Source: Amphiscolops sp. MND2022
Lineage: Eukaryota
DNA: 64,000 bases
NCBI GenBank assembly: GCA_964187785.1
Contig: OZ076409.1
Coordinates: 1,488,001-1,552,000 of the forward strand
Reading direction: 5' to 3'
The notes under the pieces were generated by a model. It was not told the DNA's origin. It searched no databases and saw only the letters and a program-made list of their open reading frames with translations. Shown piece after piece: positions 9,167 to 53,366 of this stretch; within the stretch, counting starts at the first letter, position 1; every line of letters begins with the position of its first letter. A program made the translations under genes and the position numbers.

Positions 9167-9403
9167 GCAAATTCATTGGCTTCATCTGCGCAGTAGCAGG
9201 AGTGCTCACAATAGCGCTGCCAGTACCTGTGATTGTGAGTAACTTTGCATCTTTCTACCAGCACGCCCAAGCGAGAAAAAAGTTGCCCAAGAAACGCCGA
9301 GAGATCAAACCGGCCACTGGGAAACTGCCACTGATGAGGAAAACAGGTTTCAGAAACTTGCAAGTCAACAGCCAATCACAATCAAGAAGAGGTTCCCCGC
9401 GAT
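9167..9403 (+). CDS. Shaw/Kv3-family K+ channel, S6 exon of upstream repeat (unit 1)
   Basis: tttcag| acceptor; translates (G)[44 protein letters not shown]..., the canonical S6 PVP gate plus the Shaw-type post-S6 KLPKKRR; donor T|gttagt, phase 1/1. Confidence 0.92.
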
Positions 9404-10694: not shown

Positions 10695-11125
10695 GTTTAG
10701 TACCAGTTTTGAAGAAACGCTCAGATCATCACAATCTGCCATTTTTTCATGACTTGCTGCAGTTTTGGTACCAGTCATGAGTATCTCTATTCGTACATTG
10801 GGATTTTTCTTGTCACTCAAAACAATTTCCATTGATATAAAATTGATTTAAATCAAGTTCTTTTGCCTTTCCAATAAGAATAATCCAAAATGAATATTAT
10901 ATTACACAATTATTTGTAGCTTTCAAAGTTTAGTACCAGTTTTGAACAAACTGCCAGATCATCACAATCTGCCTTTATTTGATGACATGCTGCAATTTTG
11001 GTACCTATCGTGAGTATCTCTATTCGTACTTTGGGATTTTTCCTGTCAATCAAAACAATTTCCAATGATATAAAATTGGTTTAATTTAAATTCTTCTGCC
11101 TTTCAATATTGATCACTCAAAATCA
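10695..11125. repeat. Diverged tandem duplication, period about 233 bp, inside a GGATTCCAC-motif repeat
   Basis: GTTTAGTACCAGTTTTGAA...GATCATCACAATCTGCC at 10695 and 10928. Confidence 0.75.
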
Positions 11126-12479
11126 GCGAACCAATCAGAGAGCAGCGGCACAAGCGTCATTATAGCAGCAGCAGAAGAAGAAGAAGAAGAATTGAATTAT
11201 TTTGTTGCCCAAGGGCGTACAAACAACAGCTTAGAGGTTTATATCAGTACTAGAACACCGAGTAATTATCGAATGCAAAAATTTGGCAAGATTTTGAACA
11301 AATTCTTATCGGTTACATTCATCAGCTGGTCATACTTGATGACATTTGGCGTGGAATCCAGGACAACCACTGTCGTGGAGTCCAAGACACGCTCAACATC
11401 AAAAGGGAAATTTTGTCCTGGATTCCACGACTTTTCTCAATTTTCGTGTCCTGGATTCCACGAAAAGCAGCAAAATAGCTTGCCTGTGCACTGTAATGTT
11501 CTCATCATTATCGTGGAAGACTATCCATGTTTCGGATATAATGAAAGGTACCATGGATGAATAACAATGATTCGAATGTAATGCCACGAAAGACCTATGA
11601 TCATGGATGAAAAGACAATATTGAGCCATGATGGTCAACCTGGGTTGTTCCAGTAGAAATTTTTAATGAATTGATTGTTAATTTCCGACCCCACATTTTA
11701 TAAATCGGGGAGGAAAATCATGATTTGTGACGCGTTTTTTCCCCAAACTTTGCCAAATCTCCACAATTTCCACCTTTTGATTACTCGACTATTTTTATTA
11801 GCTTTTAATAAATAAAATAGTCAAGTAACTAAAATAGCATACAATGGGAATAATATCTAAAGTCAAAAAAGGGAATAAGATCTAAAATTTCAGGACGGGA
11901 ATAAGATCTAAAAGGAAAAAGATCTAGAATCACTAAATTTTAGATCTTATTCTTTAGATCCTATTTCCCTTCCCAAAATAGCTATGGCTCAGTTGGTGAA
12001 CGTTGGTGAAGACGCTTAGCGGGCGTTTTGTTTTACACGTGTCTTTGTTCGGTCCAAGTTTCGCTATCGTGATCAATCAACATTGTCTTTGACAATACAA
12101 ACAAAACACAATTAAAATTTTTCTTTTTGAAAGTTTGAACTTGTTATAATGTTGGTGAAACAGTGATACATGCAAAACATACAGCACCGAAAATGCCAAT
12201 CAGTGGTCGAAACTACACAATTTTTTACATACTGCAGGCCTGAATGCAAGGAAAAGTTTTATAAAATCAAAAATATTACTTTTTACGTTACCGACACGAT
12301 CACGCTTTTTTCACAATTCATTTTTGGAACTTCTTGTGTAATATAAACATTGCTTTTCAAATAGCACACTGAAGATGCCGCTAGTTTGAAGTTTATAACG
12401 TGACTGAAATTATCCTGCATTGAAATGGCGTTGAAAATTATAAGGTCTGAAGGTTATATAAAAATAGATCTGATGTCTA

Positions 12480-14489: not shown

Positions 14490-15051
14490 TATCAAGCACA
14501 TGGTTCAATAGTTGTAATGGTTCAAAATCATCGCTGAAGTCAGTGACCTAAGGAGCTGAAATTCGTTTTCATTCTTTGCATTTCGTTGATTCGGAACTCA
14601 GATTTTAAATTACATTTACATTGAAAGCAGATTTTTGTTGTCCTGGGCAATCTTATTCATCAACTGCAATCAAAAATATGACGAAAAATTATAAAACAAA
14701 TACACACAAAAATTGAAAATTTAATGCTTCACATCTTAACCAGATAGTTTCAAGCTATTCTTTGCTTAGTTCAAAACCTAATGAAGGTCAAAGTTTTGAC
14801 TGAAAAAAGAGTCTTCTAGCGCTTCATTTGCTTTAAAAAACTTGAATCTTTGCAGGGACTTTTTTCAAAGCGCAATAAATTCACTCGGAGTTATCTAAGC
14901 TGCAGGGAAGTTTTGCAGGAATTTTACCTGCAGGGTTTCTGATTGTCTATGCTTTATGTGAAATTATCCAAGACTCTTGCATGCTTCATATTAAAAGTTC
15001 CTTTAATTTGAACTAAGTAGGATTATGACTTATTCCTAGACTTTGTTTCAG

Positions 15052-15263
15052 TGAGTTTAGTAGTAACGGGAAACTGGCGACAAAAGGGCAGTTTAACGAG
15101 CAACGCTGATTTGGGAGCAGCCAAACTCGTTTCTGAAAAGACAAGCCAGGCCGTCCCCTCTGCTTCATTCCTGAAGAACAAAGCCCTCTTGCGCCGAGTG
15201 TTCCTGCCTTCCCAGAAAACCAACAACCTACCTCCTGATATCCACAGATCCACTGACAGTGCT
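15052..15263 (+). CDS. Probable post-S6 cytoplasmic/linker exon of the Kv locus
   Basis: tttgtttcag| acceptor in phase 1, compatible with the 9403 donor; open and GC-richer (SLVVTGNWRQKG...DIHRSTDSA); 3' end uncertain (gt at 15259 phase 1, gt at 15264 phase 0, or stop at 15282-15284). Confidence 0.55.
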
Positions 15264-15282
15264 GTACACTTAAAAAAAGTTT

Positions 15283-15763
15283 AACAAGCCGGGAACGGCA
15301 TAAGTCGGCGCTATGCCTAAGGCTCAAAAGCGCAAACTTTTTACAATATGCTCAAGTCGTTTCTTATGGAAACCACAAAAAAGTTTCGAAACATTTTCAA
15401 AAAACCCAAAAGGACCGAACTGGCGCGCTAAAAAGAGGACCCTTTTGGATTTTTCAACATCCATTTTCTTGCAAAACATCAAAAAATTAAAGGGGTACCC
15501 TTTGAGGAAAAATTTTTTTTCTAAAAAAAAGTCTCACAACGCCAAAAAAACTGAAAGGGGGACCCTTTAGTCTCGCCCGGTACTGTATGTTGTGGTGAAA
15601 AAAGGAAAAACCTTTTTGGTTCAGTTCGCTAGGCGAAATGGTTCAATTTGACACCATAAAATTTTGTAGAACTTTTGTAGAACTATTTTGGTCAGTTCGT
15701 GTGGATTGAAAAAAAAGAGTTACTATAATAGTCGCGTTTCACTTCATGAAGCGCCGACTAAAA
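15283..15763 (-). mobile_element. Helentron-type family A copy
   Basis: AACAAGCCGGGAACGGC..AAGTCGGCGC at left, GCGCCGACTAAAA at right. Confidence 0.75.
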
Positions 15764-15828
15764 AGCCACAACTGTAGTCTGAGTTTTCTATTCAAAGCAC
15801 TGACTGAAATTAAAATAAATTGTTCCAG

Positions 15829-15876
15829 TTTCAATTTTTAAGCAAATTTCGTTCTCGATATGAGCAGCTTTGCTCA
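15829..15876 (+). CDS. Candidate small exon encoding degenerate pre-S1 helix of unit 2
   Basis: ttgttccag| acceptor; only phase 0 stays open (FQFLSKFRSRYEQLCS); weak donor TCA|gttttg (alternative TG|gtattt at 15890). Confidence 0.35.
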
Positions 15877-15939
15877 GTTTTGTCAATTTGGTATTTGGAA
15901 AATGGGAACATAAACAAAAGTGTACATCTTTGTATTCAG

Positions 15940-17030
15940 GCGAGAAAGAAAACACTGAAACCGGTGGAAACGAAGTTTCCGAAGAAAAATCTGCGGCTGA
16001 TTTGTCATCAATTGTGGCTGCCCTTCGCAGAAAAGAGGCATCAAAATCAAAATTGGAATCAGTGTCAACAAAAGTTCAGGGTTCCAACCCAAAAATGAAA
16101 GAAACAGTCGAAAGCCATCCAGTTCTCGCAACAATTCCAAAAAAATGTGCCAGCAATCTGGTTCCGAACGGAGTTTGTTCTGTGGCTTCTTCAAAAGTGC
16201 CGGATCCGGAAACCTCGCTTTTGGAAACTCCGGATACTTCGGTCAAGATTACCGTCGAATGTCACGATGATGCTGCAGATGACGTAACGAATGATGAAAC
16301 CAATGACGTAATAAATGACGTAACTGATGACACAATCACGAGTGACGTCGATCCGTTTACCGAGAGTTCTTCTCGGAAAGTTTCAAAGTGTGTAAATCAT
16401 TGCAAGGAAGTGGAAAGTCCAATATTTGTGAATGTTTGCGATGATGAAATTTCGACGATTCTCAACCCGTGTCAATTGAATAATGGCGTTTTTGATGGGT
16501 TGGATAATATGCAGCTGGTAGCCAATCAAAACTCTTCTCACTTATTATCCAATCAGAATTCAGTTCAACTATCAGCCAATCACAATTTGACACAACTATC
16601 GACCAATCACAATTCGACTCAACTATCAGCCAATCACAATTCGATTCAGCAATCAGCCAATCACAATTCGACTCAACTATCAGCCAATCACAATTCGATT
16701 CAGCTATCAGCCAATCACCATTCGGCACAACTATCAGCCAAACACATTTCGACTCTACTATCAGCCAATCACAATTCGATTCAGCTAGCAACCAATCACA
16801 ATTCGACTCTAATATCAGCCAATCAGAGCCAGCTATGCAGTGACTCATCAAACTACGATATCTATTCAAACTCATCGGGATGTTCAGTGTTAGACGCGGG
16901 TTCTCTAATCGCGATTGACCATGAAACAAACGTTGATTGTAATGTTCACCGGAAAAAGCCCCTGGATAAAAATTGCGTCATGCAGCGACCGCAATTTCCT
17001 CAAATTTTCACTTCATCCAAAGATTTTTGA
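15940..17030 (+). CDS. Large acidic/low-complexity exon, probable (alternative) terminal exon of Kv unit 1
   Basis: Within 386-aa ORF; tttgtattcag| acceptor in phase 1 compatible with upstream donors; contains QLSANHNS repeats; stop at 17028-17030; AATAAA about 300 nt downstream. Confidence 0.55.
16520..16825 (+). repeat. 30-bp in-frame minisatellite (about 10 units)
   Basis: Unit like CAACTATCAGCCAATCACAATTCGACT/ATT encoding QLSANHNS(T/I). Confidence 0.9.
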
Positions 17031-17441
17031 CCATGAAGACTTGCCGCCGCTTTTTTCCATGGATACCTCAAAGATGTCAAAACTCGCCAGAAGAATGCCA
17101 AACCAATTTTATTATTCGTAATCACGTTATTTCTACTTACACAGATAGCTTTGTTACCTTGTTCCGTTCAAAGTATTCAATCGAACTCTAGTTTACCATT
17201 TATCATTATCATGTTAAGTAAAAGTATAAGAGTTTATGAAACTATTTATCCAAAGTATTATGCATAAAATGAGATGTATTAGGTGCTTTTCGATTACTTG
17301 CAGAATCTGGTTTTTAAAAGCTGAAATAAAGTTGGTAAGCTTTATAAGTTTAACTAAAGAACTATTCAAACTTCCAGAACTATTCAAACTTCCGAAAAAA
17401 AACTAAATAATTTTTCAGTTTCCTACTTAATTTTTTTTCAG

Positions 17442-17468
17442 AACAGCGGAGTCAATGGCTTGGGGAAA
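17442..17468 (+). CDS. Candidate 27-nt micro-exon directly before S1
   Basis: Strong acceptor ttttttttcag|; NSGVNGLGK; AAA|gtgttg donor in phase 0, matching the S1 exon and ending in the K that precedes S1 in Shaw channels. Confidence 0.5.
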
Positions 17469-17570
17469 GTGTTGTCATCATCATCATGACTAAGCTGTAT
17501 TAAAAATCCTCTATACTGCTGATGTGAAAAACAAAATTCTGTTTTTTTTTCAAAAAAATGGCGTTTTTAG

Positions 17571-17692
17571 ATCATCAACACCATCACAGTGACGTGTATC
17601 ATTCTGTCCATCTGCACGTTTTGTGCGGGTACCCATACCGCCTTCATCGAGCCAATACCAACCTCAAAATCACCCGCGACCACCACCAAAAA
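17571..17692 (+). CDS. Shaw/Kv3 channel unit 2, S1 exon
   Basis: tttttag|IINTITVTCIILSICTFCAGTHTAFIEP...|gtgagt; S1 motif S-I-x-x-F-C-x-x-T-H; phase 0/2; absent from the ORF track. Confidence 0.88.
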
Positions 17693-18395
17693 GTGAGTTA
17701 GTTGCCACTCATGGAGTCCCAAGTTCGAATCCGAGGTTCATCCTCAAAAGATCTTTTTAGTCGGCGCTTTTTTTGAGACAAGAGTCGACTATAGTCATGG
17801 CTTTTCGTCAGTGTTGTTTTTCGATACATCTGAAGTGACCAAAATAGTTCTACCAAAAGTTCTCCAAAATTTTCAGGTGTCGCCAAAATGTACCTGACCA
17901 AGGAACTGAACCAAAATAGTTTTTCCTTTTTTTCCGCGCAACATACAATACCGGGCGGTACTAAAGGGTCCCATCTTTGAGTTTTTTTCGGCATTGTTGG
18001 ACATTTTTTCAAAAAAATTTTCACCAAAGTGTCACCAATTCACCAATACCTTGACACTTTGAAGTCCTTTTGCTATTTTTGAGCCTTTTATATGGCACCG
18101 AAGTAGTATACGAATTCCCGATTGGGGCCAGTCAAGCCATCAAAATTAAGTATATTTTTTCAAACAAACTGTTAAAACAGGTATTTTTACAAATCCTGAT
18201 AAAAAATCATCAATTTAAGCATATTTTTACAAACAAACAGTTAAAACAGATATTTTTCCAAATATATCATCAAAAGTACCTTTTTTCACAACTCAATATT
18301 AACAGATAACAAAAACAAGCATATTTTCCCAAAATATCAATCAAAATTTAGCCTTTTTTCAAGGTAATTAATCAAGGTTTTTTCAAGGTTTTACT

Positions 18396-19727
18396 TGCAA
18401 TAAGACTAATCACGTTCCTGACCACTTAAAGGGAAAAAATCATTCTGAAGCTTTATTGCTCAAAAAGCCGCGCCAATCAATTCTAGTACCAAGTGGCTCA
18501 CATGTTGAGGACAATTTTAACCGAAAACTTGTTGAGGAATGGCTCGGAGCAGGATTACCGCTAAAAGTTTTATCACAGCCTAGTTTTCGCTCATTCTTTG
18601 AAACTGCCCTTAGCAGGAAAATCCCTTCAGTTTCCCAACTTTACACCAAATATGCTGACACAGTATATGCCGAAAAACAATCTACTTTCTTACATCTAGT
18701 AAAAAGCTTCAGGTCATATTACGTTATGTTTGATGAGGCAGATTATAATGGAGAAAAATACTATGCATTTTTGATAGGCAATCTTAATGCCGAGGGCGCT
18801 CACCAGCCCTATCTCATCGAGTTAAGTCGAGAGATGAAAACACCTGATGCTGTTGCCGTTCAGCAAAAGGTCATTCAGCTGTTATCAAAGGTAGGCCTAT
18901 TGACTTCTGAAGATGCTTTTAATAAATTTCGCCTGTTTCTTACCGATGGGGCTTCTTATTGCACAAGTGCAGGAAGGGAAATAAAAAAGACATTTCCGAA
19001 AATGGAGCACATTACTTGCTTCTCACATATGCTCGCTCGAGTTCTATGTGCCGTAAAAGATTCTTCTCCTTCCGTTACAAAAATGGTTAAATTCGTTACA
19101 AAATTTTTCCACAATTCCACTCGACGAGTTTCTGACTGGTCTATTGTTTGTAGCAAAAAATACCCCACACCAGTTGAAACACGCTGGGGGACATGGATTG
19201 ATGCCGTTATTTACATTTCCGAAAATTGGGAGCCATCTCGAAGTTTTTTGAATTCCAGGAATGTTCAAGAAGATAAAGACAAGGCGGAAAAAATTTTATC
19301 ATTGATGGACCAAGATGGCGTGAAAGCCCAAACAGGGTTTTTGTGTTCTCTCCAATTTATTCGCGAGAAAATCACCGAAAGTGAAGCTGCAGGATATACC
19401 GCAATAAAGGCCATGAACGCTGTTCAGTTTATCCAATCACGTCTTATTGATTTGAAAGAAACAGGAAATACAATTGCCGATGTTGCTCTGGCAAAATTGG
19501 ACGCAGTTTCGGAGAAAAATGAAGGTTTACGGAGAGTTGTCCGTTTTGCGAACGGGGAATCCATTTCTGAGCCCGCCGACATAGGAGTTTTCGCATTCGC
19601 ACCATGCACAACAGTGGATGTGGAGCGATTTTTCTCCGTGCTCAACGCTTTCGTGTCCGACAGACCGAATATACTTGAACAAACTCTCAAGAAAATGTTG
19701 TTTATTAAGTATAATTCAACATTATAG
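18396..19727 (+). CDS. hAT-superfamily DDE transposase (DUF659/CGGBP1-like), 5'-truncated
   Basis: 423-aa ORF from TTG at 18456 with FDE, LTDGASY, CFSH, ETRWGTW and APCTTVDVERFFS motifs; in-frame upstream CNKTNHVPDHLKGKNH looks like half a zinc finger; no ATG before it. Confidence 0.85.
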   Translation, partial: CNKTNHVPDHLKGKNHSEALLLKKPRQSILVPSGSHVEDNFNRKLVEEWLGAGLPLKVLSQPSFRSFFETALSRKIPSVSQLYTKYADTVYAEKQSTFLHLVKSFRSYYVMFDEADYNGEKYYAFLIGNLNAEGAHQPYLIELSREMKTPDAVAVQQKVIQLLSKVGLLTSEDAFNKFRLFLTDGASYCTSAGREIKKTFPKMEHITCFSHMLARVLCAVKDSSPSVTKMVKFVTKFFHNSTRRVSDWSIVCSKKYPTPVETRWGTWIDAVIYISENWEPSRSFLNSRNVQEDKDKAEKILSLMDQDGVKAQTGFLCSLQFIREKITESEAAGYTAIKAMNAVQFIQSRLIDLKETGNTIADVALAKLDAVSEKNEGLRRVVRFANGESISEPADIGVFAFAPCTTVDVERFFSVLNAFVSDRPNILEQTLKKMLFIKYNSTL

Positions 19728-19814
19728 ACGTTAATTGTTGTTTAATTAATGTTATTGAACAATAAATTTGTGTTTTCTTTGGCATTCTAGCAGTGCCGAA
19801 AAAAGTGCCGAAAA

Positions 19815-20234
19815 CTAGCTCAAAATGCCGATTTTCGGCGCCGAAAACGAAGACAAAATGCCGAAAATAATTCTTCCTAGATACAACACATACAAACAAT
19901 ACGCCGCACAATAACTGTCGTCGGTCTGAATTTGATGTTCTGAATAGATACCTTTTTTAATGTGATTAAGTATACTAGTTGGAGGTGGTCATCCATTTGA
20001 ATCAAAATAATACTCGTTAACAAACATAACCCAATGTGTTCCTTTGGTTGGATGTAAATTTACAATTCCAGAATCTGTTGTAAACTTATTATCTCTCATG
20101 TAAATTCCTACTGGGATTGTTAGTTTACCGGAGGCGCAAAGCGTATCAAGAACTTCTTTTATTTTAATATTGGAGGTTGCTTCATCTTTTAATCCATATT
20201 AATCAACAAATTCTTTGAATGATAAACAATTCAT
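19815..20234 (-). pseudogene. Adenain-type (Polinton/adintovirus-like) cysteine protease pseudogene
   Basis: MNCLSFKEFVD*YGLK...GIVNLHPTKGTHWVMFVNEYYFDSNG*PPP...EHQIQTDDSYCAAYCLYVLYL; catalytic H, D, Q, C motifs present; two in-frame stops. Confidence 0.85.
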
Positions 20235-21044
20235 TTATTAGTTATTTTTTATGACAAAAATTTCCACTGGAACAATTTGTTATTTAATTTTTCTTTTGTC
20301 AATTTTTTAGTTGTGAAAAAGGCTAATTTTTGATTAATTACCTTGAAAAAAGGCTAAATTTTGATTGATATTTTGGGAAAATATGCTTGTTTTTGTTATC
20401 TGTTAATTTTGAGTTGTGAAAAAAGGCACTTTTGATGATATATTTGGAAAAATATCTGTTTTAACTGTTTGTTTGTAAAAATATGCTTAAATTGATGATT
20501 TTTATATCAGGATTTGTAAAAATACCTGTTTTAACTGTTTGTTTGAAAAAATATACTTAATTTTGATGGTTTGACTGGCCCGAATCGGGAATTCGTATAC
20601 TATTCACCGACTAGGGCCGGCTTGTTTTATAGTGTTTTACCATGAAGTCGTTGACTTCGAATTTTTCCCTTCTCGATCTGCAGTTTAGTTGAAACCGCCG
20701 GATATTGAATCTGACTTGACTTATTTTAGTTATGTTTCTCAGATCCCAGTCATACGATTTTGATGCCATTGCATGGAAATGTTCATTTAAAGGTCGGGAG
20801 AAAAAGGTACGCGTGCATAAGTAGTCAAAAATTTTTCCGACTCCTAAAATCTGAAATTATCACCTTTTCTAATCGTAGTTGTTCCGATAACTTTCAAGTG
20901 ATTTGATTTCTTCACAAAGATTTTAATTTACTGCATTTTTGACCCGTTGACTTTGATAAGTTGAACCTTGATCACTTGACCCTTAATAACTTGACCCTTG
21001 ATGAGTTGACCTTTGATAAGTTGAGCTTTGACCTTGACCTTTAG

Positions 21045-21244
21045 TGGTTCTTCAACGATGCCGGTGGGCAGTTCACAGACGTACCCCCTGCAAGACTACT
21101 GGGACGCAACGGGGCAGCTGAAACTGAATGGCCGACCCAAACAGTACCTTTTCATAATCGAGTGCTTCTGCAATGCCTGGTTCACCTTCGAACTCATCAC
21201 TCGTTTCATCGTGTCACCCCAGAAAATGCACTTCATACATGAAG
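21045..21244 (+). CDS. Shaw/Kv3 channel unit 2, S1-S2 loop and S2 exon
   Basis: LFIIECFCNAWFTFELITRFIVSP matches Shaw S2; phase 2/1 consistent with neighbours. Confidence 0.92.
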
Positions 21245-24239: not shown

Positions 24240-25445
24240 CTTTTCAAGCCTTCAACTTTTTGACCCTTCAATTTTTGACCCTTGAAATTTGATCCTTGAC
24301 TTTTGAAGCGTAACTTTTAACGCTTGAGTTCTTAACCTTGACTTTTGACCCTTTTCTTTTTTTGACCATCGACCCTTGACTTCGTTTGACCCTTGACTTT
24401 GTGTTTGACTCTCTACTTTTGATCCTTGACTTTTTCCACCGTTGATTTTCTCGACCCTTGACTTTGTTTGACCCTTGACTTTTGACTCTTGACTTTTGAC
24501 TCTTGACTTTTGACCCTTGACTTTTTCTACCGTTGACTTTTGACCCTTAACTTTTTTTGACCCTTGACTTTGGACCCTTGACTTTGTTTGACCCTCTACT
24601 TTTGACCCTTGACTTTTTCCACCGTTGACTTCTTCGACCCTTGACTTTGTTTGACCCTTGACTTTTGACTCTTGACTTTTGACCCTTGACTTTCTTTGAC
24701 CCTTGACCCTTGACTTTTGACCCTTTGACTTTGTTTGACCCTTGACTTTTGACTCTTGATTTTTGACCCTTGACTTTGTTGACCATTGACCCTTGACTTT
24801 TGACCCTTTGACTTTGTTTGACCCTATACGTTTGACCCTTGACTTTTTCCACCGTTGATTTCTTCGACCCTTGACTTTGTTTGACCCTTGACTTTTGACT
24901 CTTGACTTTCACCCTTGACTTTGTTTGACACTATACGTTTGACCCTTGACTTTTTCCACCGTTGATTTCTTCGACCCTTGACTTTGTTTGACCCTTGACT
25001 TTTGACTCTTGACTTTCACCCTTGACTTTGTTTGACCCTTGACCCTTGACTTTTGACCCTTTGACTTTGTTTGACCCTCTACGTTTGACCCTTGACTTTT
25101 TCCACCGTTGATTTCTTCGACCCTTGACTTTGTTTGACCCTTGACTTTTGACTCTTGACTTTCACCCTTGACTTTGTTTGACCCTATACGTTTGACCCTT
25201 GACTTTTTCCACCGTTGATTTCTTCGACCCTTGACTTTGTTTGACCCTTGACTTTTGACTCTTGACATTTGACCCTTGACTTTTGACCCTTTGACTTCGT
25301 TTGACCCTTGACTTTTGACTCTTAACTTTTGACCCTTGACTTTTTCCACCGTTGACTTTTGACCCTTGACTTTTTCCACCGTTGACTTTTGACCCGTGAC
25401 TTTTGACCCTTGACTTTTTCGACTGTTGACTTTTGACCCTTGATT
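24240..25445 (+). repeat. 1.2-kb TTGACCC/TTGACTT minisatellite
   Basis: Degenerate 7-mer units with higher-order repeats; abuts the S3-S4 acceptor. Confidence 0.95.
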
Positions 25446-25453
25446 ATTGACAG

Positions 25454-25635
25454 GTGTGAACATCATCGACTTCCTGGCCACAATCAACTTCTACATCGCA
25501 GTGTTCCAGCGGGTGTTCAAACTGGAGGGCATCCTGCGAGACATCTTGGACGTGCTTTCAATCGTGCGCATCCTGAGGATCTTCAAACTCACCAGACACC
25601 ATCCCGGCCTCAAAATCCTCCAACTCACACTCAAG
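25454..25635 (+). CDS. Shaw/Kv3 channel unit 2, S3-S4 exon
   Basis: VNIIDFLATINFY (S3) and LSIVRILRIFKLTRHHPGLKIL (Shaw-type S4); ends AAG|gcacca (GC donor). Confidence 0.93.
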
Positions 25636-26822: not shown

Positions 26823-27033
26823 GCCTCTGCAAGGGAGCTGTTTCTGCTGATCCTGTTCCTCATCTTCGGCGTGGTCATCTTCAGCGCCATGGTGTACTTC
26901 GCGGAGAAGATGGAGCTGAAGCGCCAGAAGGACACCCAAAACGACTTCCAGAGCATCATTGACGGATTCTGGTGGAGTGTCGTTACCATGACAACCGTGG
27001 GGTACGGAGACATGGTCCCCAGAAGTTACTCAG
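26823..27033 (+). CDS. Shaw/Kv3 channel unit 2, S5 and pore exon
   Basis: [28 protein letters not shown]...[22 protein letters not shown]; intact TVGYGD filter; phase 0/1. Confidence 0.96.
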
Positions 27034-31492: not shown

Positions 31493-34400
31493 TGTTCTAT
31501 TCTCACTAACTAAGGGTTTGGTGAAAAAGAATGTGTTAAAAGAATATCTATAGTTCACTGACTGTCTTGTAGATACTAAATGCATATAATAAAGTATAAG
31601 CTCTTGATTTCACCGCTTGTGTTGATAGCCGGTTCTTTTCTTATTCTTTTTTCGGTCTGAAATACAAGGCCCGAAATAAATTTTCGGTTTAATATTTTTC
31701 CGGTATCCGTTTTTACGGTACTTTCGGTCCCGCGCACTGCTGTTTGTAATTTTTTTTGGAATTTCCATTCTAATGATATTTTATTAATTTTTTTTTCAAC
31801 ATAATAGAAAGGATATCTAACCGAAACTTTCTTCGGTGACTATGGACCTTCATTGGTGGTTGCTCTTCTGTTTTGGTCCTCGCCATTATTATGTGGTTGG
31901 TAATCTCTCCTTCCGCATCACGCCAACATAACATGGAGTCTTTGGTCAGTTCGGTGCTGAAATAGCCATTTCCGAGCAATAAGTCAAGTATGTTATTCGT
32001 CCTTAACGATAATCGATAATTCGGTTTTCGGGTTTCTCCCGTGATGTAGTTCTAACGGTGTTATTTTTAATCCCGTTTGTATTGTAAAACGCATTACCCG
32101 TAGCACTGGATTCACACTTTCGGGTAAATTGATTCCGTCCTTCGAATTCGCTTTTATCAATTTTTTTAGTGTTTGTATTGATCTTTCGGCTGCTCCGTTT
32201 CCGGTGTGTATTCGGGGTGTGCAGTATTCTATTTCAATATTTCGGCTTTTGCAAAATTTTCTATACACTTTAAAAATAAATGCTCCCCATTTGTGGGATT
32301 TTATCTTTTCTGGAATTCCGTACATGTTGAAAATGCTCGATAAGAACATTATCAACTCTTTTAGTTCCGAATTCTACAGATTTTTATAGTAGGCTATTGC
32401 TAAAACTGTCTACCGTGATCAGTATTTGTACTTCGCCGTCTAAACTTTTATTATGTAATTTTTCGCTGAAATCAATTTGTATTTCTTGGCCAGGTCCGGT
32501 TACATTTTCTAAGTTTCCGTAGTGTTTTTTCGGAAATTGGTATTTAAGACTTTTACCTAATGCTAGGCATGCTGTGCAGTCCTTCACTTTATTTTCGATG
32601 TCTTGTTTCATGTCCAGCCACCAGAATATCTTCGCTTCGAACGTAATTTTTGTGATGCGGGAGTGACCGAAATGCAAAATTTGAATGACGATTTGGTCGT
32701 CGACAAATATAAGGTCCCGTATGACAGAGAGTTTGTCAAAAACTGGTCGGTAGCCGTTTGGAATCGTTTCTCTGTCCTCACGGCGCATGCTGTTTCTTGT
32801 TTCTAACTCGAGTAATTTCTGGGTTGATTGCCGTTTTAGAGATCAGGGTTTTTAAGTCCATCATGAACTCGAACTCTGATTTCTTGATGAGGTCTTGGTT
32901 GCTTTCTTGTTTGTAGTAAGTTTCCCGACGTTGTGGTTGATTTGTATGTACTTGGCTTCTTTGCCGTCAGTGTTGTACTTCGTCAGATCGACAATTGCTA
33001 GATTGTCGCCCCGCATTATTACATTATCTTCTTCATTTTCGATCGTCTCTTGTTCGATCTCTCCTTCTTCTCTCACTTTTCCGGTTTTTCATTTTCATCT
33101 TCTTCTTCCTCTACTACTACTAATATCGGTTGATAGCCACCTCCGGATCAATTCCACATCAATTTCGGCAATTTTTTCTCTGCTTCATGTATTCGACCGT
33201 TCTTTGTGTTTGATGGTCATACCGGCGTGTCAATGTTCCGGGCCGGGATAGCGCGTTTCGTTGCTCCACCAGTCTTTTTGTCTCGGGGCTGTTTTTTCGT
33301 CTCCGGATAATATCCATTATTTCTCGGGGTAGCTTCCCAGTGGTAATAGTTTACTATATCTATTTTCTCGTGTTCGTTGTCTTTCGATGATTGGCCGCTT
33401 TCCAAAGTGTTAAAAAATATGGATGTCGTTATTTGGCTTTATTAGGTTTTCTTCACCTGTTTTTCGTTCTCGAATGTTCTATGTGAATGTGATTGGTGCT
33501 TTCTGTGCTGAATTTTGGTTCTGGAATAATCTTCTTTCTTTCGGTTATGGTTTTGCTGTGTTCTGATTGGTTAGCGAACAGTTGTTCGTATTTCGAGTTT
33601 AAGATAGCTTGTTCGACAATTATGTTGAGTACGTATTCTTGATCGTAACTTTCTTCCGGCTTTGCTCCCCCTAACGGATTTCTACTGAGAAGTTGGTGAA
33701 CATACAATTGCTGCCTGCGATATGCTGTATTGATATATCGAAGTGAGTTAGACGGTCCAACCATCTCGTTAATCTCGGGCAATACTGTTTGTTGCTTCGG
33801 ATTCTTTCTATCAGTGGTTCTATTGCTTGAATGGTCAGTATTGAGATGGACTTCTTTTTCGTTAAGGTAAAATCGGAATTTCTCTAATCCCCATACCACC
33901 GCCAATAATTTGAGTTCACTGAGTGTTTCTTTTCGGTTTAATTCAAATACCGGCTTCCGTACGCTATAGGTTTTGTATTTCCGTCATCTTGTTTTTGCCA
34001 TAAACCACGTTCCCGTTGCGCTAGCATCAGTCGTTACTCTGTTGTCTTAATGTTTTGCATAGTGTGCTAGACATGGGCCTTCGGTCAACATCTGTTCTGT
34101 CTATCCAAAGTCTTCTTCTTGTTCGGGTCCCCAGTTCCTCCCCAATAGTTTTTGGAGTCCAACCATTCTTTCCGAAAGTTTCGGTACGAATTTTGCCATG
34201 TATTGGATTGCTCCGAGTAAAGATTTCAGTTCCTTTGTAATTTTTGGTGGGTTCAGTTTAGTTTTAAGGTAACTTCTACTTTTCATTCGTTCGGTTTTAT
34301 TCCGTTTTCATCAATCTCGTAGCCCAACCACTTTGTTTGGTTCACGAAGATTTCGGATTTTCTTTTGCTTGCTCGGTATCCGGCTTTCTCCAATTTATTC

Positions 34401-36480
34401 AAGTTGTCAACTTCTTTTTTCTCGTGTTCTTATTTATTTCCCTCGGTTACTACAATTATGTCGTCTAATCAAGACGGTGTGCTGTATCCGAGTGTTCGGT
34501 CAATTTTTTCTTGATATATTGTGGGTATATCGGCAAGACCGTAACCCAATTTTTGAATCTGTAGAATGCGCGGAATATCCCTCCGGTTGTTGTGAATACG
34601 GATTGTCGGTTTGTTTCTCCGGATAGTTTCATTTGTCCGTATGCGTAGTCCAAGTCTTTCTTTGAGGTAAATAGTTGTACTGTTCGGTCGCGTGTAATTT
34701 CTACAGAAGTTTGATTTAAGGGCTCCTCCATGTTCGGCATATGCGGTCTCATTTTGGTGCAACTATCTATCCTTCAATTTCCGTGAATCTGATGTTATTA
34801 TTTGTCGATTTGTCGCTTTTCACGGTTTTTATCACCGGTAAAACGAAACAATCTTCATCTACATCGTTCTTCGTTTCTAGATGTCCGGATTTTATCAGTT
34901 TTCTAGTTCGCGCCCTACATCTTGTTAGTGCAGTGGTACCAGTCTAGTTTTTTGTTTGACTGGTTAAGGTACCAGCTTCAACTGGATGTTTATTTCGGTA
35001 TCTTTTTTTGTTTCGTTTTTCTCAAACAAGTTCGAAATTGTGTCGGATACTTTCTCGCGTTTTGATTTGCTGTTCTCGGCCAATTACCTTCTGCCTATGG
35101 TTGGTTCGAATGTTTTCATCCAGTCAATCCCGAGTAAAGATGTTATATCTGTTAATTTGGATATTAGGATTTCCAATTTTTGTTTGCTATTCTCGTACTC
35201 CATGTCTAGCGGAATGTTTCCCCGGAATTTTACTTCGTTCTTACTCACATCTTGGCATCTATTTGTGATCTTTTGTATTTCGGCTAGTTTCAATATCGTT
35301 TCTTCCGGTGGCATTAACGGTAGCCGGTATCGATTATCGATTATGAATTCTTTTTTGTCCAGTTCATTTTCACTGTTGCCGTATAGCGTTTGTTCTTTTC
35401 TTCGATTTTTATTCTTTTATGTGGTGTATACTTACTTCTGATTCACTTGATGTTTCGTTTCGGTCGTCGGTTTCTTCTTCAATTAGTCTATTCACTTTTC
35501 GGTTGGTTGTTAGTGTATTTCTATCTTCACACTTTTGCGTAGTGTCCTTTTTCCCGCATTTGTTACAATATGTTTCTAATGCTGGACACTTATGTAATGG
35601 TGTCCAGTTCGGTGCCCCCAAACTCTGCATGTTCTGTTTCATGCCGGTCTGGTGTTTGGTCTCGCACCGAATTTCTTTATTCTTTGTATCAGTTCTTCTT
35701 TCATAGTGTGTCGTTGCCAAAATTGCCAAAATTAACGCCTCGTGTATTGTATTTTTTTTGTATGTGTTTTGTTTGAATAGTTCAATCGTCTTTTTCACTT
35801 CTACTGTTTTCTCTTTCATCATTTTGTCCCGTAAGTTTTAATCGGTGATTGCTGTCATAAATTTGGATATCAGTAGTTCTTGGGCTGAGATTTCGCTAAA
35901 ATTGCAATTGTTTTTTCGATTTCGATCAGTCTTCTCCAAAAGTCTTCGGGTGTCTCTTCTTCCGTTTTTTTGCCCAAATTGAATCTCCCCGGTTGAGGTA
36001 AGTATTTCGTTTCGGTATACAGTACTCGGTGAGAAACCGGATTAGGTCTTTAATTTTGATGCTGTCCGGTTCTGTTTCATACTCGGCACGTGTTATTTGA
36101 TACAGCTCTTCGCGTTTAACTCCCCAGATGAAGTCTTTCTGGATTTGTTGTTCTTTTCCAGTCCATACGGAATCGGTGATGTCTTCTCCTTTTGATAGTG
36201 GTGCAATGTCTGTTATGTTCCCGTTTAGTAAACTGCCGGACTAGTTCTAACTGCCGGAATCGGAAACTCTCTCGGTGTGAATATCGCGTTTCCGTCCGAA
36301 GCCTTTGCTTCTAGGTTCGGTACTGTGTTTTTTTCTGTCATGTTTATTGTTTAAGGTTTCAATTTGTTCGAAATTTGGCTGACTGCGCCATGCTCTATTC
36401 TCACTAACTAAGGGTTTGGTAAAAAAAAGAATGTGTTAGGAGAATATCTAGAGTTCACTGACGAAATGTATATAATAAAA
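31493..36480 (-). mobile_element. Degenerate Ty3/Gypsy LTR retrotransposon
   Basis: Minus-strand fragments in order gag (CPA..C.KCGK), protease, RT (DLDYAYGQ, LDDII), RNase H (AVVWGLEKFRFYL), integrase (H..H/C..C, YGIPEKI); many frameshifts; direct repeats starting 31493 and 36391; PBS at 36378-36390. Confidence 0.92.
36378..36390 (-). other. Primer binding site of the Gypsy element (probably tRNA-Ser)
   Basis: TGGCGCAGTCAGC directly follows the LTR-terminal CA; complementary to a tRNA 3' end GCUGACUGCG-CCA. Confidence 0.7.
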
Positions 36481-38935: not shown

Positions 38936-39148
38936 GTATGTTGGTGGGTATGTTGTGTGCCCTGGCAGGAGTGCTAACTACGTCACTGCCCATACCCGTC
39001 ATAGTATCCAACTTCACTCAGTACTATCAGCACCTGGAGGCGAGGAAGAAACTGCCCAAAAAGAGGAGACGCTTCGTCAACATCCTCCCCAACGCTAAGC
39101 CCGAGCCCAGACCCCAGCGACAAAACCGCGAAAACAGGGCCCGAAAAG
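38936..39148 (+). CDS. Shaw/Kv3 channel unit 2, S6 exon
   Basis: (G)[45 protein letters not shown]; phase 1/1; same intron position as the 9167 exon. Confidence 0.94.
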
Positions 39149-41778: not shown

Positions 41779-42004
41779 CTGCTTTGCAATCAGACTCAAC
41801 AAGGTCGCCTGTGCTTCCGAAACGGACAGTGTCTCCGAACCAGCAGATCCTACCCAGACGAGAGGGCCCCAGCATCTCCTATTCCAGATCCAGTCACAGC
41901 CGAGAGGCCAGTGAATCCAAAGACGACCATCTCAGCCCCCCCACGAAACCCACTCTAGAGAGACTGGAAAGCGACACGGACGCTTTCCTCAAAAACCCCT
42001 ACCA
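41779..42004 (+). CDS. Kv unit 2 C-terminal exon
   Basis: GC-rich open frame (QSDSTRSPVLPKR...FLKNPY); acceptor tgttgcag| (or 41794), phase 1; donor CA|gtgaat, phase 2. Confidence 0.7.
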
Positions 42005-44345: not shown

Positions 44346-44636
44346 TTACAAATTTGCGTTGCCTGGACACCCGGAAAGTCAAACCCGGCTAGCTGAGGAC
44401 TTGAAGCGTCGGTTCCACAGCACACTTTTCCTAGAACGAGACAGTAGTTCTCAGACCAAAGAGATGCTGAGTGTGTTGAACAACCAGAACACCCATCTGA
44501 GCAGATCCATGGAAATAGACCGGATATCCGGCAAACACCGCAACCCTTCTGATATCAAATCCGTTATCCGAAAACTACAAGACAACAGTCGCGAGAGTTT
44601 GAACAAAGTCCAGAAGTACTTGAACAAACGTCGCAG
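44346..44636 (+). CDS. Kv unit 2 C-terminal exon
   Basis: cttgttcag| phase 2; YKFALPGHPESQTRL...YLNKRR; AG|gttcgt phase 2. Confidence 0.72.
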
Positions 44637-45645: not shown

Positions 45646-45832
45646 ATCCAAACAATATTCCAGACAACCAACGAGCAGACGGTCTTCTACCAGTTCGTTC
45701 CTAAACCCTTTTTCCACCTTAAACGCCCCCAACTTGATGAACGGGGACAAGGGCTCAGAATCCAGCGGAAGTTCCCACACGCTGGAAAGTCTGGCTGCCC
45801 AGCCGGTCATTTCAGCCGAACCACAACTACAG
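45646..45832 (+). CDS. Kv unit 2 C-terminal exon
   Basis: tttttccag| phase 2; SKQYSRQPTSRRSSTSSF...EPQLQ; consensus donor CAG|gtaagt phase 0. Confidence 0.75.
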
Positions 45833-50558: not shown

Positions 50559-50677
50559 GTGTCTCCCTTCCCGGCGAACCTTCCCTCGAAGAAGCTGCCG
50601 GACAGACACAAACTGCAGCCCAGACCGCAGCTGCCCACCTTCGTCAACGTCAGTCCCAACACCCTCCCCATACCCAG
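50559..50677 (+). CDS. Kv unit 2 C-terminal proline-rich exon
   Basis: gtttccag| phase 0; VSPFPANLPSKKLP...TLPIP; AG|gctagt GC donor gives the phase 2 needed by the next exon. Confidence 0.68.
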
Positions 50678-51903
50678 GCTAGTATACCCACACATATTAC
50701 CACAACCCTTCAGAGCCTTCACTGCTGGTCAGAAAACTAAAGGGCTCTTTACTCTTCACCCTTAACTAACCGAATTCTGCATAATTTAAGGCATTTGCAC
50801 GTATCCCAGTGCTTCCATTGCGTTATAACCGTTAGTGTGCATAAAACGCGTTTTAGCGCATCTAACACCCACCCCCCCGCGCGCTACCAAAAATTTTTTT
50901 GAAGTAAATTTCCTTGAACATTTCATACTAGCCTAATTGGAAGCAAACCCTGCTTTCATAACAGAAGTCACCGTCTATTGGAAGTTTTTGTTTGAACAAA
51001 ACATTTTTCACTTATTTGACTGTGATTATATTCGAATTAGTTTTTTTTGTGACTCAAAGCAGGAAGCTGAGCTATTTCCAAAACATCACTCTTTAGTTTT
51101 TTTTTGAATTTTCGTCCCACTTACACTTTGATTTCAAAATTTCAAATTATAACAGAAAAATTCTCCCGAACATTTCAAATCTGACAATATATTTTTTTCA
51201 TTAAATCTCTAAAAAATTCGTTAGTTTTTGAGATATTCGATTTTGAGATTTGCCTTATGTTGCTTTTTCTAGAATCACTACTGCCCAAGTTGAGTAGTAG
51301 CTACTTTTCAATACTGATTATTTGTTCAAGATTTCCCACGTTATATGTTAAGTAACTCAAAGACATTAGATTCCGTCATTGTTCTGAAGGCAATACGAAG
51401 AGACTGTTTCCATTTGGCATCCCAATTAAAGCTCAAAAATTAGTTACAACTGAATTATAGTAACTTGGAAGCGAAACGTCCTGAAAAAAGCACAAACGGA
51501 AAGCAAAATGAGACCATTTCGCCAAATATGGGACTTAAAAATCGGCAAAAGGCTCAGACTTATGGCATTGCGAGAATGAAAAGTATGAAAAATTTCATGC
51601 AACTTTTTGACAAGTGACAAAAAGGTACGCCCAAATACTAAAAACTAAATCTATGTTCCCTTCAGCAGTTCTGATAGGCAAGCGAACAGTGATACAGAAA
51701 AAAAAAGAAAAAACTGAAAATTTTACTTTTTCTTCCGAAAAACGGAAAGAATTTTTTGTTCAATGAAAAAGTAAATTTACTTAGTAAAATTTATACTCTC
51801 CCCAATAAACTTATTAGCTTAAATTTATCTTGAATTTATAAAAATTCATCTGAAATTTATTTTGATTTATGAAATACCTATTAAACTCTGGTGCCTATTT
51901 CAG

Positions 51904-52187
51904 TCAAACGTACATTTCTACCCTGGAAAGTTCTTTGCCATCCACGCCTGTTGCACTGTGCAATGGCTCTCAGTCCAGCAATAAGTTCCAGTTCAAGCCC
52001 TTCCCGCCTCTGCCCCCCGCGCCCGGGCAGCTGAATGGGCCCTTAGCCCCCCGCAAGTTGCCCCATGGGGGCATCAACTCGTCGGCCGGGTCCCTGGGTA
52101 CTGGCAAGAGACAGAGACCCAGTCTTCCAAAGGCATCTGCGTCCAGCGACAGTAAACATCTGTTCAGCGATTTACTGGAAATTAAAG
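51904..52187 (+). CDS. Kv unit 2 C-terminal proline-rich exon
   Basis: ctatttcag| phase 2; QTYISTLESSLP...PFPPLPPAPG...DLLEIK; AAG|gtctgt phase 1. Confidence 0.72.
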
Positions 52188-52729
52188 GTCTGTCTTCCAT
52201 ATATGGTTATATGTCAATATGCCAATTCAGTTGTAAATGGTGTCAGGACAATTAATCCTATGCAATTTCAACCTATACAAATTCAACCGTTGTCATTTCA
52301 ACCGCTCACAATTTCAACCTATTGCATTTTCAACCGTCCGCAATTTCGACCTAAACTAATTTTGGCTACTAATTACTCCTAATCGGTCAAGTTATTTCAG
52401 TACAAAAGCTAGTAATGAATCAAACAGCTTTATCAAATTATTGGTAATATCAAATTATTGGTAAATATTCATGAAGAAGCGAAAACGTATCAACACTGGC
52501 GTAAAAATTAGCACATTTGAATTTAGAAATGTATGGAAGTTAAAACCACCAAAATAATCATTTAACTAATTAGGATCCCATAGTCAAAATTAGTTTAGGT
52601 CGACATTGCGGACGGTTGAAAATGCAATAGGTTGAAATTGTGAGCGGTTGAAATGGCAACGGTTGAATTTGCATAGGTTGAAATTGCATAGGATGAAATG
52701 TCATGTAACCGTTGTAAATACAATGAATG

Positions 52730-53366
52730 AACAAGACGGGAACGTCTAAAGTCGGCGCTATATCTAAGGCTCAAAAAGACCCGTTTTTAAAATATGCATA
52801 GGGCAATTTCATCGAAAACTCCTGTTTTCGAACCTCCGCCTCCTCCTTAATAAAACTCAATATAATTCGGATATAACGCCAAACGTTCGGGTTTAGCGCT
52901 TCACTTCGGAAATCAAGTCAAACATTCGTATAGTATTGAAAAAAATTATTGGATATATATTGAATAACTAATATCAGACAAAAATGGGAATTTTTAAACA
53001 GTCTCATAGTGCCGAAAAATGAGAAAGTGGACCCTTTCGAATTTTTTAACATTCCTTTTGTTGCAAAAATCAAAAAAACTCGAAGGGGACCCTTTGGACA
53101 CATTAAAAATTTTTAAAGTCTCACAATGCTAAAAAAATTGAAAGGGGGAACCCTTTAGTCCGTCCGGTTTTGTAGGTTACGTTGAAAAATTAAAAAATGA
53201 AAGGGGACCCTTTGCACCAATATTCCGCTGGCCGGACTTGGCCTTAGTAGTTTTAGTAGTTTCTGTAAAAAGTGAACATTTTAGTGTGAGGTCTGTGGTC
53301 TGAAGAAAAAAAAGTCACTGTAAGAGTCAGGCATTTTTTTGCTTCACAAAAAACACCGACTAAAAA
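52730..53366 (-). mobile_element. Helentron-type family A copy
   Basis: Family termini and body. Confidence 0.7.

Follow-up and report, generated by a model that had tools for sequence, protein, structure and literature searches.

A Shaw-type potassium channel locus in the acoel Amphiscolops sp. MND2022 with, probably, one T1 exon set for two S1–S6 cassettes

Can a single exon decide whether a potassium channel gene produces a conventional subunit with one transmembrane repeat or an extended subunit with two? This question is raised by a stretch of 64,000 nucleotides from Amphiscolops sp. MND2022 (GenBank assembly GCA_964187785.1, contig OZ076409.1, positions 1,488,001 to 1,552,000 of the forward strand; hereafter the window), in which a 1.1-kb exon (15940–17030) is followed by the exons of a second channel unit. 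A preliminary description had proposed that this exon switches between single-repeat and extended isoforms. The current analysis covers 264 kb of the 1.07-Gb genome, comprising the 64-kb window, 90 kb upstream and 110 kb downstream of it. Negative positions lie upstream of the window, and a contig position equals the window position plus 1,488,000. We found the flagged exon to be real and ordinary, whereas its role as a tandem switch is unlikely.

Structure of the locus

The composition of the locus is presented in Table 1. It probably represents a Shaw (Kv3) gene of this acoel worm, in which one set of T1 exons is followed in series by two complete cassettes (units 1 and 2), each consisting of S1–S6 plus a tail. 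The T1 exon set ends in phase 0 with the residues ...SSKWAK, and its best match in the PDB is the Shaw T1 domain 3kvt (E = 5e-31), presumably from Aplysia, with Kv3.1 as the next one. This match, together with the presence of H-X5-C-X20-CC in the spliced model, which we take to be the motif of Shaw-type T1 domains, places the domain in the Shaw type. The channel bodies agree with this assignment at the level of the tree, which places both units among the Shaw sequences (96/91), with Kv1 and Kv4 as outgroups, in a data set with no Kv2 row and with a long-branch warning for the paralogue C4; single exons in the PDB search do not separate Kv1 from Kv3. A sensitive search with the T1 of the locus itself retrieved only its own three exons in the 264 kb (next match, E = 2.3), and no second copy of T1 or of the linker was found there. 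Over a stretch that starts 90 kb before the window and extends 78 kb past its end, the assembly contains no N gaps; the only N run is located at 141,725.

Both bodies look constrained. The S4 arginines, the TVGYG filter and the PxP gate are intact in both units (PVP in unit 1, PIP in unit 2). The comparison of unit 2 with L073, its orthologue in a relative, resulted in a dN of 0.066 and a dS of 1.21 (dN/dS ~0.05), and that of unit 1 with the paralogue C5 in a dN of 0.10 with saturated dS over 52 codons. The predicted tail of unit 2 shows a weak similarity to that of the acoel protein P0003 (25% over 187 columns, pairwise E 2e-4).

Table 1. Features of the Shaw locus, given as window positions unless marked as contig positions.
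Feature	Position	Strand	Remarks
T1 exons (shared)	contig 1431123-1431360, 1438570-1438777, 1439897-1440005 = -56877..-56640, -49430..-49223, -48103..-47995	+	48-57 kb upstream of window
Unit 1 S1-to-pore exons	contig 1472220-1472370, 1473500-1473750, 1481422-1481689, 1483629-1483772	+	S1 (starts -15780), S2-S3, S4-S5, pore; upstream of window
Unit 1 S6 exon (PVPVIVSNF gate)	9167..9346	+	phase 1 end
Unit 1 last coding exon, predicted	15940..17030	+	363-residue low-complexity cytoplasmic tail; TGA stop 17028-17030
Tandem repeat, in-frame minisatellite	16520..16825	+	27-nt unit, 11.3 copies; within tail exon
AATAAA, possible poly(A) signal for isoform A	17325..17330	+	295 nt past stop
T8CAG acceptor-like motif	17431..17441	+	before 17442; good donor absent downstream; probably unused
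Unit 2 S1 exon	17571..17692	+	phase-0 acceptor, shared in position with relative L073; upstream ATG in frame absent
Unit 2 S1-S2 loop + S2 exon	21045..21244	+	
Unit 2 S3-S4 exon	25454..25635	+	GC donor at end
Unit 2 S5-pore exon (TVGYGD)	26823..27033	+	
Unit 2 S6 exon (PIPVIVSNF gate)	38936..39148	+	
Unit 2 tail exon 1, predicted	41779..42004	+	phase chain, open frame
Unit 2 tail exon 2, predicted	44346..44636	+	contains KRRFHST, also present in tails of paralogues
Unit 2 tail exon 3, predicted	45646..45832	+	
Unit 2 tail exon 4, predicted	50559..50727	+	RPQLPTFVN, cf. RPTLPGFVN in P0003; ends at either 50727 or 50743
Unit 2 last coding exon, predicted, own stop	51904..52255	+	acceptor uncertain; AATAAA at 52849

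The introns of the locus harbor several repetitive elements. Retrotransposon-like reading frames are present in the intron between T1 and S1 (contig ~1443000-1457800) and, on the minus strand, in the intron between the pore and S6 exons of unit 2 (~31800-36200). The first intron of unit 2 contains a DNA transposon-like element (18104-20602) with long terminal inverted arms that are 96-99% complementary and with a 451-codon frame (18372-19727), whose DUF659 match is weak and below the cut-off; we take the element to be hAT-like. A 1.2-kb tandem array of the TTGACCC type (24258-25451) abuts the S3-S4 acceptor of unit 2, and a shorter, similar array (20947-21043) is located just 5' of the S2 acceptor.

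The terminal exon of the first cassette and the predicted isoforms

The 1.1-kb exon had been described as ending in a stop codon with a downstream AATAAA, and both features are borne out by the analysis. The exon starts behind the acceptor TTGTATTCAG at 15940 and comprises 1,091 nt through the TGA, with 363 open codons. Its entry phase 1 matches the S6 donor of unit 1 (CAG/GTTTCA, after 9346). The open frame exceeds chance expectation, as 1,000 shuffled versions of the exon included no frame open over at least 191 codons (longest, 111). The codon-usage score of the exon is +5.8 in frame versus -88.5 and -132 in the other two frames, which supports the frame in relative terms and is not strongly positive. 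The exon is a single copy in the genome. A comparison with 6,237 candidates, each 635-2,000 aa long, detected no homologue, and there was no Pfam family within it and no counterpart in the tail regions of the paralogues at E<0.01. An accumulation of 11 CCAATC words at 16500-16840 (32 per kb vs 0.47) corresponds to one in-frame minisatellite of this exon. With 244 and 248 occurrences on the two strands of the 264 kb, i.e. about one per kb and strand, the AATAAA at 17325 is a plausible but not a diagnostic poly(A) signal. One long open frame also follows S6 in the paralogues C3 and C5 (408 and 306 codons), just as in unit 1. The first cassette likely ends with 15940-17030 as its regular last exon, which resembles the usual long tail exon of an acoel Shaw gene.

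Additional small tail exons of unit 1 are possible between 9346 and 15940. Two mildly coding-like frames without homologues lie between S6 and the tail exon (11090-11560 and 15052-15260); the latter has a phase-1 acceptor at 15052 but lacks a suitable GT donor, and it is followed by a repeat-like element at ~15283. No Rfam family was found at 15000-18500, and 17040-17700 is single-copy in the genome and hence neither a retrocopy nor a repeat.

The S1 exons of both units start in phase 0 and lack a start codon, being preceded either by a stop or by no ATG in their frame; the splice phase is identical (0) at these two alternative acceptors. Joined to the T1 exons, unit 1 results in an open spliced model of 879 aa, and unit 2 in a model that stays open through four phase-chained tail exons and comprises 836-907 aa depending on the last junction, both with GT/GC-AG sites. 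The phase-0 intron between T1 and S1 is also common to the paralogues C3, C5 and C8, where it spans 68.7, 52.2 and 44.1 kb, respectively. Given this range of 44-69 kb, the 65.6-kb intron from T1 to 17571 is ordinary here. In RefSeq models of a unit-2-type paralogue from Symsagittifera roscoffensis and Convolutriloba macropyga the sequence ...SSKWAK/LINMITV is joined directly, with nothing inserted, one pore and a total length of 893-907 aa, similar to that of T1 plus unit 2; such models document the type of junction, not its use in the present gene.

Matching phases, open frames, the lack of a second T1 and a paralogue with the same junction support one option of the preliminary description, namely that unit 2 is an alternative S1–S6 cassette on a shared upstream T1. 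We regard it as fairly probable that the T1 exons are spliced to either cassette, with 15940-17030 as the likely terminal exon of the first one, and that the products are two channels of normal size and not one of double length. One promoter would drive transcription of the whole locus. The phase-0 donor after ...SSKWAK would join the S1 acceptor of unit 1, 32 kb away, and the transcript would end near the AATAAA at 17325, resulting in isoform A of 879 aa. Alternatively, the same donor would join 17571, 65.6 kb away, and unit 1 would be removed together with its poly(A) site as one intron, resulting in isoform B of ~840-910 aa. Both isoforms are predicted to be single 6-TM subunits with an identical T1, which would enable them to co-assemble. 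The choice between the cassettes is predicted to be made at the T1–S1 junction, which lies 48 kb upstream of the window, and not at the exon 15940-17030.

The acceptor at 17571 scores poorly (0.0 bits) on a rough matrix of 31 sites from the Shaw genes of this genome, of which one training site is off by a base and for which three of 19 paralogue candidates had been dropped. No Dscam-like docking/selector pairing was apparent: when the 500 nt that follow the shared donor are paired with each of the two acceptor regions, the energies (-25.6 and -23.0 kcal/mol) lie within the background of 40 random windows (-30.2 to -22.2). The protein searches across species, two of which used a word index and scored no more than 206 and 128 candidates, returned no protein composed of T1 and unit 1 and no direct orthologue of unit 2 with a T1.

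Competing explanations

An unlikely alternative is that T1 and unit 2 form a constitutive gene, in which unit 1 with its last exon 15940-17030 would be nested, either as a T1-less gene that starts from a first exon of its own or as a cassette that is rarely used. The unit-1 orthologue of C. macropyga is indeed annotated as a separate T1-less gene (XP_075258124.1, 344 aa) with a 22-residue leader, but this leader has no match in the 264 kb, and we infer that the ends of XP_075258124.1 are poorly supported model ends. The T1 is nearer to the unit-2 lineage by identity, and unit 1 diverges faster from the same species than C3 does (83% vs 96%). However, S1 of unit 1 begins exactly at the ancestral phase-0 intron position, and no coding-like first exon was found outside the transposon-like frames between the T1 donor and this S1, in a search that would miss a short exon. 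Moreover, T1 mediates assembly in Kv channels according to the accessible text of a Kv survey (PMC9989356), which speaks against a T1-less product.

The same two proteins could also arise if isoform B were generated by genic trans-splicing as in mod(mdg4), i.e. from a T1 pre-mRNA and a separate unit-2 RNA that would originate from an internal promoter or be left after cleavage near 17345. We consider this variant quite improbable. The spacing of ~100 nt between AATAAA and acceptor resembles that of nematode operons, where the distance is also ~100 nt, and the 11 CCAATC words are found 0.7-1 kb upstream of 17571; the latter form, however, one in-frame minisatellite. In mod(mdg4), common exons are joined to 3' exons from independent promoters, as stated in the available part of PMC13490949. 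Leader trans-splicing affects 30.2% of the genes of S. roscoffensis (excerpt of PMC9911081), and a 22-nt piece of its leader has 2,528 matches in the present genome versus one for the control. On the other hand, all parts of the locus are collinear on one strand, so that cis-splicing suffices, and the length of the intron from T1 to 17571 is ordinary for the family.

The matches in the genome (e.g. L069-L072 and L108-L109) suggest that leader trans-splicing probably exists in this animal. Four of them were read; none is followed by a GT donor, they look like leader-tagged insertions, and no SL RNA gene was located. One match is attached to a repeat of at least 40 copies, and the dispersed matches are possibly retroposed leader-capped RNAs.

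The preliminary description had emphasized a strong acceptor at 17442, about 110 nt after the AATAAA. The distance (112 nt past the hexamer) and the rarity of the T8CAG motif stand, with two copies on the plus and three on the minus strand of the 264 kb (T6CAG, 10 and 17), i.e. without enrichment on the gene strand. Its strength does not: the site reaches only 6.0 bits, a score that is attained ~2.4 times per kb, and none of the seven GT sites between 17442 and 17560 exceeds 0.8 bits, compared with 0.8-11.3 bits for real donors (33 sites, leave-one-out). Without a usable donor, 17442 is probably not a functional exon start. The orthologue L073 of unit 2 has three T-rich AG sites of its own within 106 nt 5' of S1. 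Two uses of the site were considered and discarded. A 27-nt microexon (17442-17468) between T1 and S1 would be in frame, but its donor has 0.8 bits and it would add nine residues, of which the paralogue models have none at this place; a short alternative last exon of unit 1 (20 residues, ATTAAA at 17499) exists on paper and is unsupported. The argument that the interval leaves almost no room for a promoter does not matter, because unit 2 lacks a start codon and needs an upstream exon anyway.

A tandem channel with 12 TM segments, generated by skipping or truncating 15940-17030, is very unlikely. The real S6 donor of unit 1 frameshifts into 17571, both directly and via 17442-17468, and no real splice sites link S6 in frame to the S1 that follows. 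The proposal of the preliminary description thus divides: the exon does appear to end a conventional 6-TM isoform, being in frame with S6 in the open 879-aa model, but its skipping in favor of an extended channel fails on the reading frame. The frame is restored only by cryptic donors, for example those at 9364 (4.4 bits) or 16518 (4.8 bits), and by 17471 or 17474 in combination with 17442. Donors of at least 4 bits occur 5.4 times per kb, and the donors at 17471 and 17474 (-4.2 and -4.6 bits) score below all 33 real ones. Each unit keeps its own tail and stop, and none of the acoel Shaw proteins examined has two pores. A nematode GenBank model with two fused Shaw TM units (KAJ1350688.1, P0078) would speak for such a form, but it is an automated, partial prediction.

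There is hardly any probability that unit 2 is a T1-less cistron with a spliced leader added at 17442 or 17571, as had been suggested too. The likely presence of leader trans-splicing and the T8CAG motif ~100 nt past the candidate cleavage site would fit. Nevertheless, there is no ATG in 17275-17571 that is in frame with S1 of unit 2 or reaches it through any listed donor, the ATGs at 17211 and 17274 are in the right frame but run into an early stop, and the first in-frame Met of unit 2 follows only after S1. The relative L073 has the same phase-0 acceptor, no ATG in the 106 nt upstream and an S1 that is conserved from its first residue. Equally remote is a mis-assembly that juxtaposed two genes and lost one T1, for which the repeat-rich region could be put forward, but which is contradicted by the gap-free locus, by the absence of an orphan Kv T1 among the genome-wide matches (lower bounds) and by the listing of both units on a contig of equal length (385,095 nt) in another assembly.

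Origin of the two cassettes and known parallels

Units 1 and 2 are 61% identical over 206 columns. In the trees, whose blocks were anchored on P0003 and from which fragment rows were left out (three in one tree, six in the other), unit 1 clusters with the C5 body and with P0071 from C. macropyga (100/98), and unit 2 with C3, C8, P0003 and P0005 (100/99), the latter two being orthologues of C3. The topology test rejects a clade that would unite both units with their orthologues (AU p 1.5e-69). The two units thus belong to separate old Shaw paralogue lineages, and the locus is therefore not a tandem duplication of one cassette. Orthologues of both units are present in relatives. The nearest named relatives of the channel exons are C. 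macropyga and S. roscoffensis (91% over 70 residues), and unit 1 is 83% identical to P0071 over 206 columns. P0070 and P0072, fragments of both units, are each listed on a contig of the above-mentioned length in another assembly, which suggests a conserved linkage.

Four closely related Shaw T1 sets (C1 = this locus, C3, C5 and C8) face five bodies in the genome, numbers that are lower bounds, and every Kv T1 among the genome-wide hits, likewise lower bounds, has a nearby body. No hidden second TM module was found in the introns of C3, C5 and C8 or in the 40 kb past S6 of C5. The T1 of the locus is 81% identical to that of C3 and 73% to that of C5, but the tree does not assign it to a lineage (AU p 0.17); its affinity to the unit-2 lineage is only a lean. 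We infer that, most likely, a C5-type body (unit 1) came into the T1–S1 intron of a C3-type gene (unit 2) via the shared phase-0 intron; alternatively, one T1 may have been lost from an ancestral cluster of two genes.

The arrangement can be compared with several known systems. One example is a gene of nematodes that codes for a glutamate-gated chloride channel, avr-14 (gbr-2), whose products AVR-14A and AVR-14B share the N-terminal domain and differ in the channel-forming and intracellular 3' halves, as described in the accessible text of PMC3144221. The Shaw locus likewise has one shared 5' domain and, 3' of it, a pair of complete alternative modules that both end in a stop of their own, so that one N-terminal domain would be linked to either of two halves. 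However, avr-14 encodes a Cys-loop receptor with products that are 81-82% similar overall and shown by cDNAs, whereas the cassettes analyzed here are 61% identical members of separate paralogue lineages, with isoforms predicted from DNA. With Shaw/Kv3 channels (3KVT of presumed Aplysia origin, human Kv3.1, acoel XP_063712738-50 and XP_075251156-9) the locus has in common the T1 type, the phase-0 intron before S1, the 6-TM body and the long tail exon. In contrast to C3, C5 and C8 with one TM module per T1, it has two.

Common 5' exons with alternative 3' modules are also present in Drosophila mod(mdg4) and lola, where the common exons encode a BTB domain. Drosophila Shaker swaps N-termini and the part from the pore to the C-terminus on a common core; at the present locus, splicing would instead exchange the complete voltage sensor together with the pore and the tail. 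T1 itself is BTB-related, and Shaker illustrates how splicing diversifies one Kv gene, a mode that is described for only a few bilaterian Kv genes in the available part of the Kv survey (PMC9989356). Unlike mod(mdg4), which is trans-spliced from independent promoters (excerpt of PMC13490949), nothing here requires trans-splicing. We found no report of a whole S1–S6 swap in Shaw in the literature searched, as far as the accessible texts extend (including PMC5196487 and bioRxiv 10.1101/2025.09.21.677649), but one may have been described before, for example in annotations of nematode genes; nothing useful on the gene structure of acoel Kv3 or of nematode shw-1/shw-3 was found in the same literature. 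The nematode model KAJ1350688.1 from Parelaphostrongylus tenuis resembles our locus in having two Shaw S1–S6 units after one T1-linker end and no T1 between them. Its units, in contrast, are sisters (100/98) and annotated as one fused protein, hinting at an independent tandem duplication and an independent origin of the layout with one T1 and two bodies. Nematode Shaw genes may thus have reached this design on their own.

A more far-reaching reading is tentative and, on present grounds, rather doubtful: the voltage sensor, pore and tail of an old paralogue would have been captured in the intron of another Shaw gene whose T1 they borrow, the splice ratio would set the heterotetramers, and the distal cassette would possibly be trans-spliced as in mod(mdg4). 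If so, one promoter and one T1 would give rise to two subunits with 61% identity and to heterotetramers of obligate compatibility. T1 sets which Kv subunits assemble together, according to the accessible text of PMC9989356. Already in the main reading, two old, divergent voltage-sensor and pore modules would operate under one promoter and an identical T1, with a splice choice that tunes the channel while compatibility is guaranteed, and they would offer a natural pair for asking which share of gating lies in the body and which in T1. Such a design would also explain two annotation artefacts, namely T1-less "Shaw-like" genes and fused tandem models.

Minor observations concern the channel bodies. 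Unit 1, P0071, P0072, C8 and P0008, and hence both paralogue lineages, carry W instead of G in their pore helix (SIIDWFWW). GC donors are present in unit 2, C3, C8 and C4, and those of unit 2 and C3 occupy the same position. The introns in the Shaw bodies of this species (21244/21245 and 25635/25636; paralogues C3, C8 and C4) are absent from the relative L073, which has a single continuous frame from S2 to the pore, suggesting a lineage-specific gain or loss.
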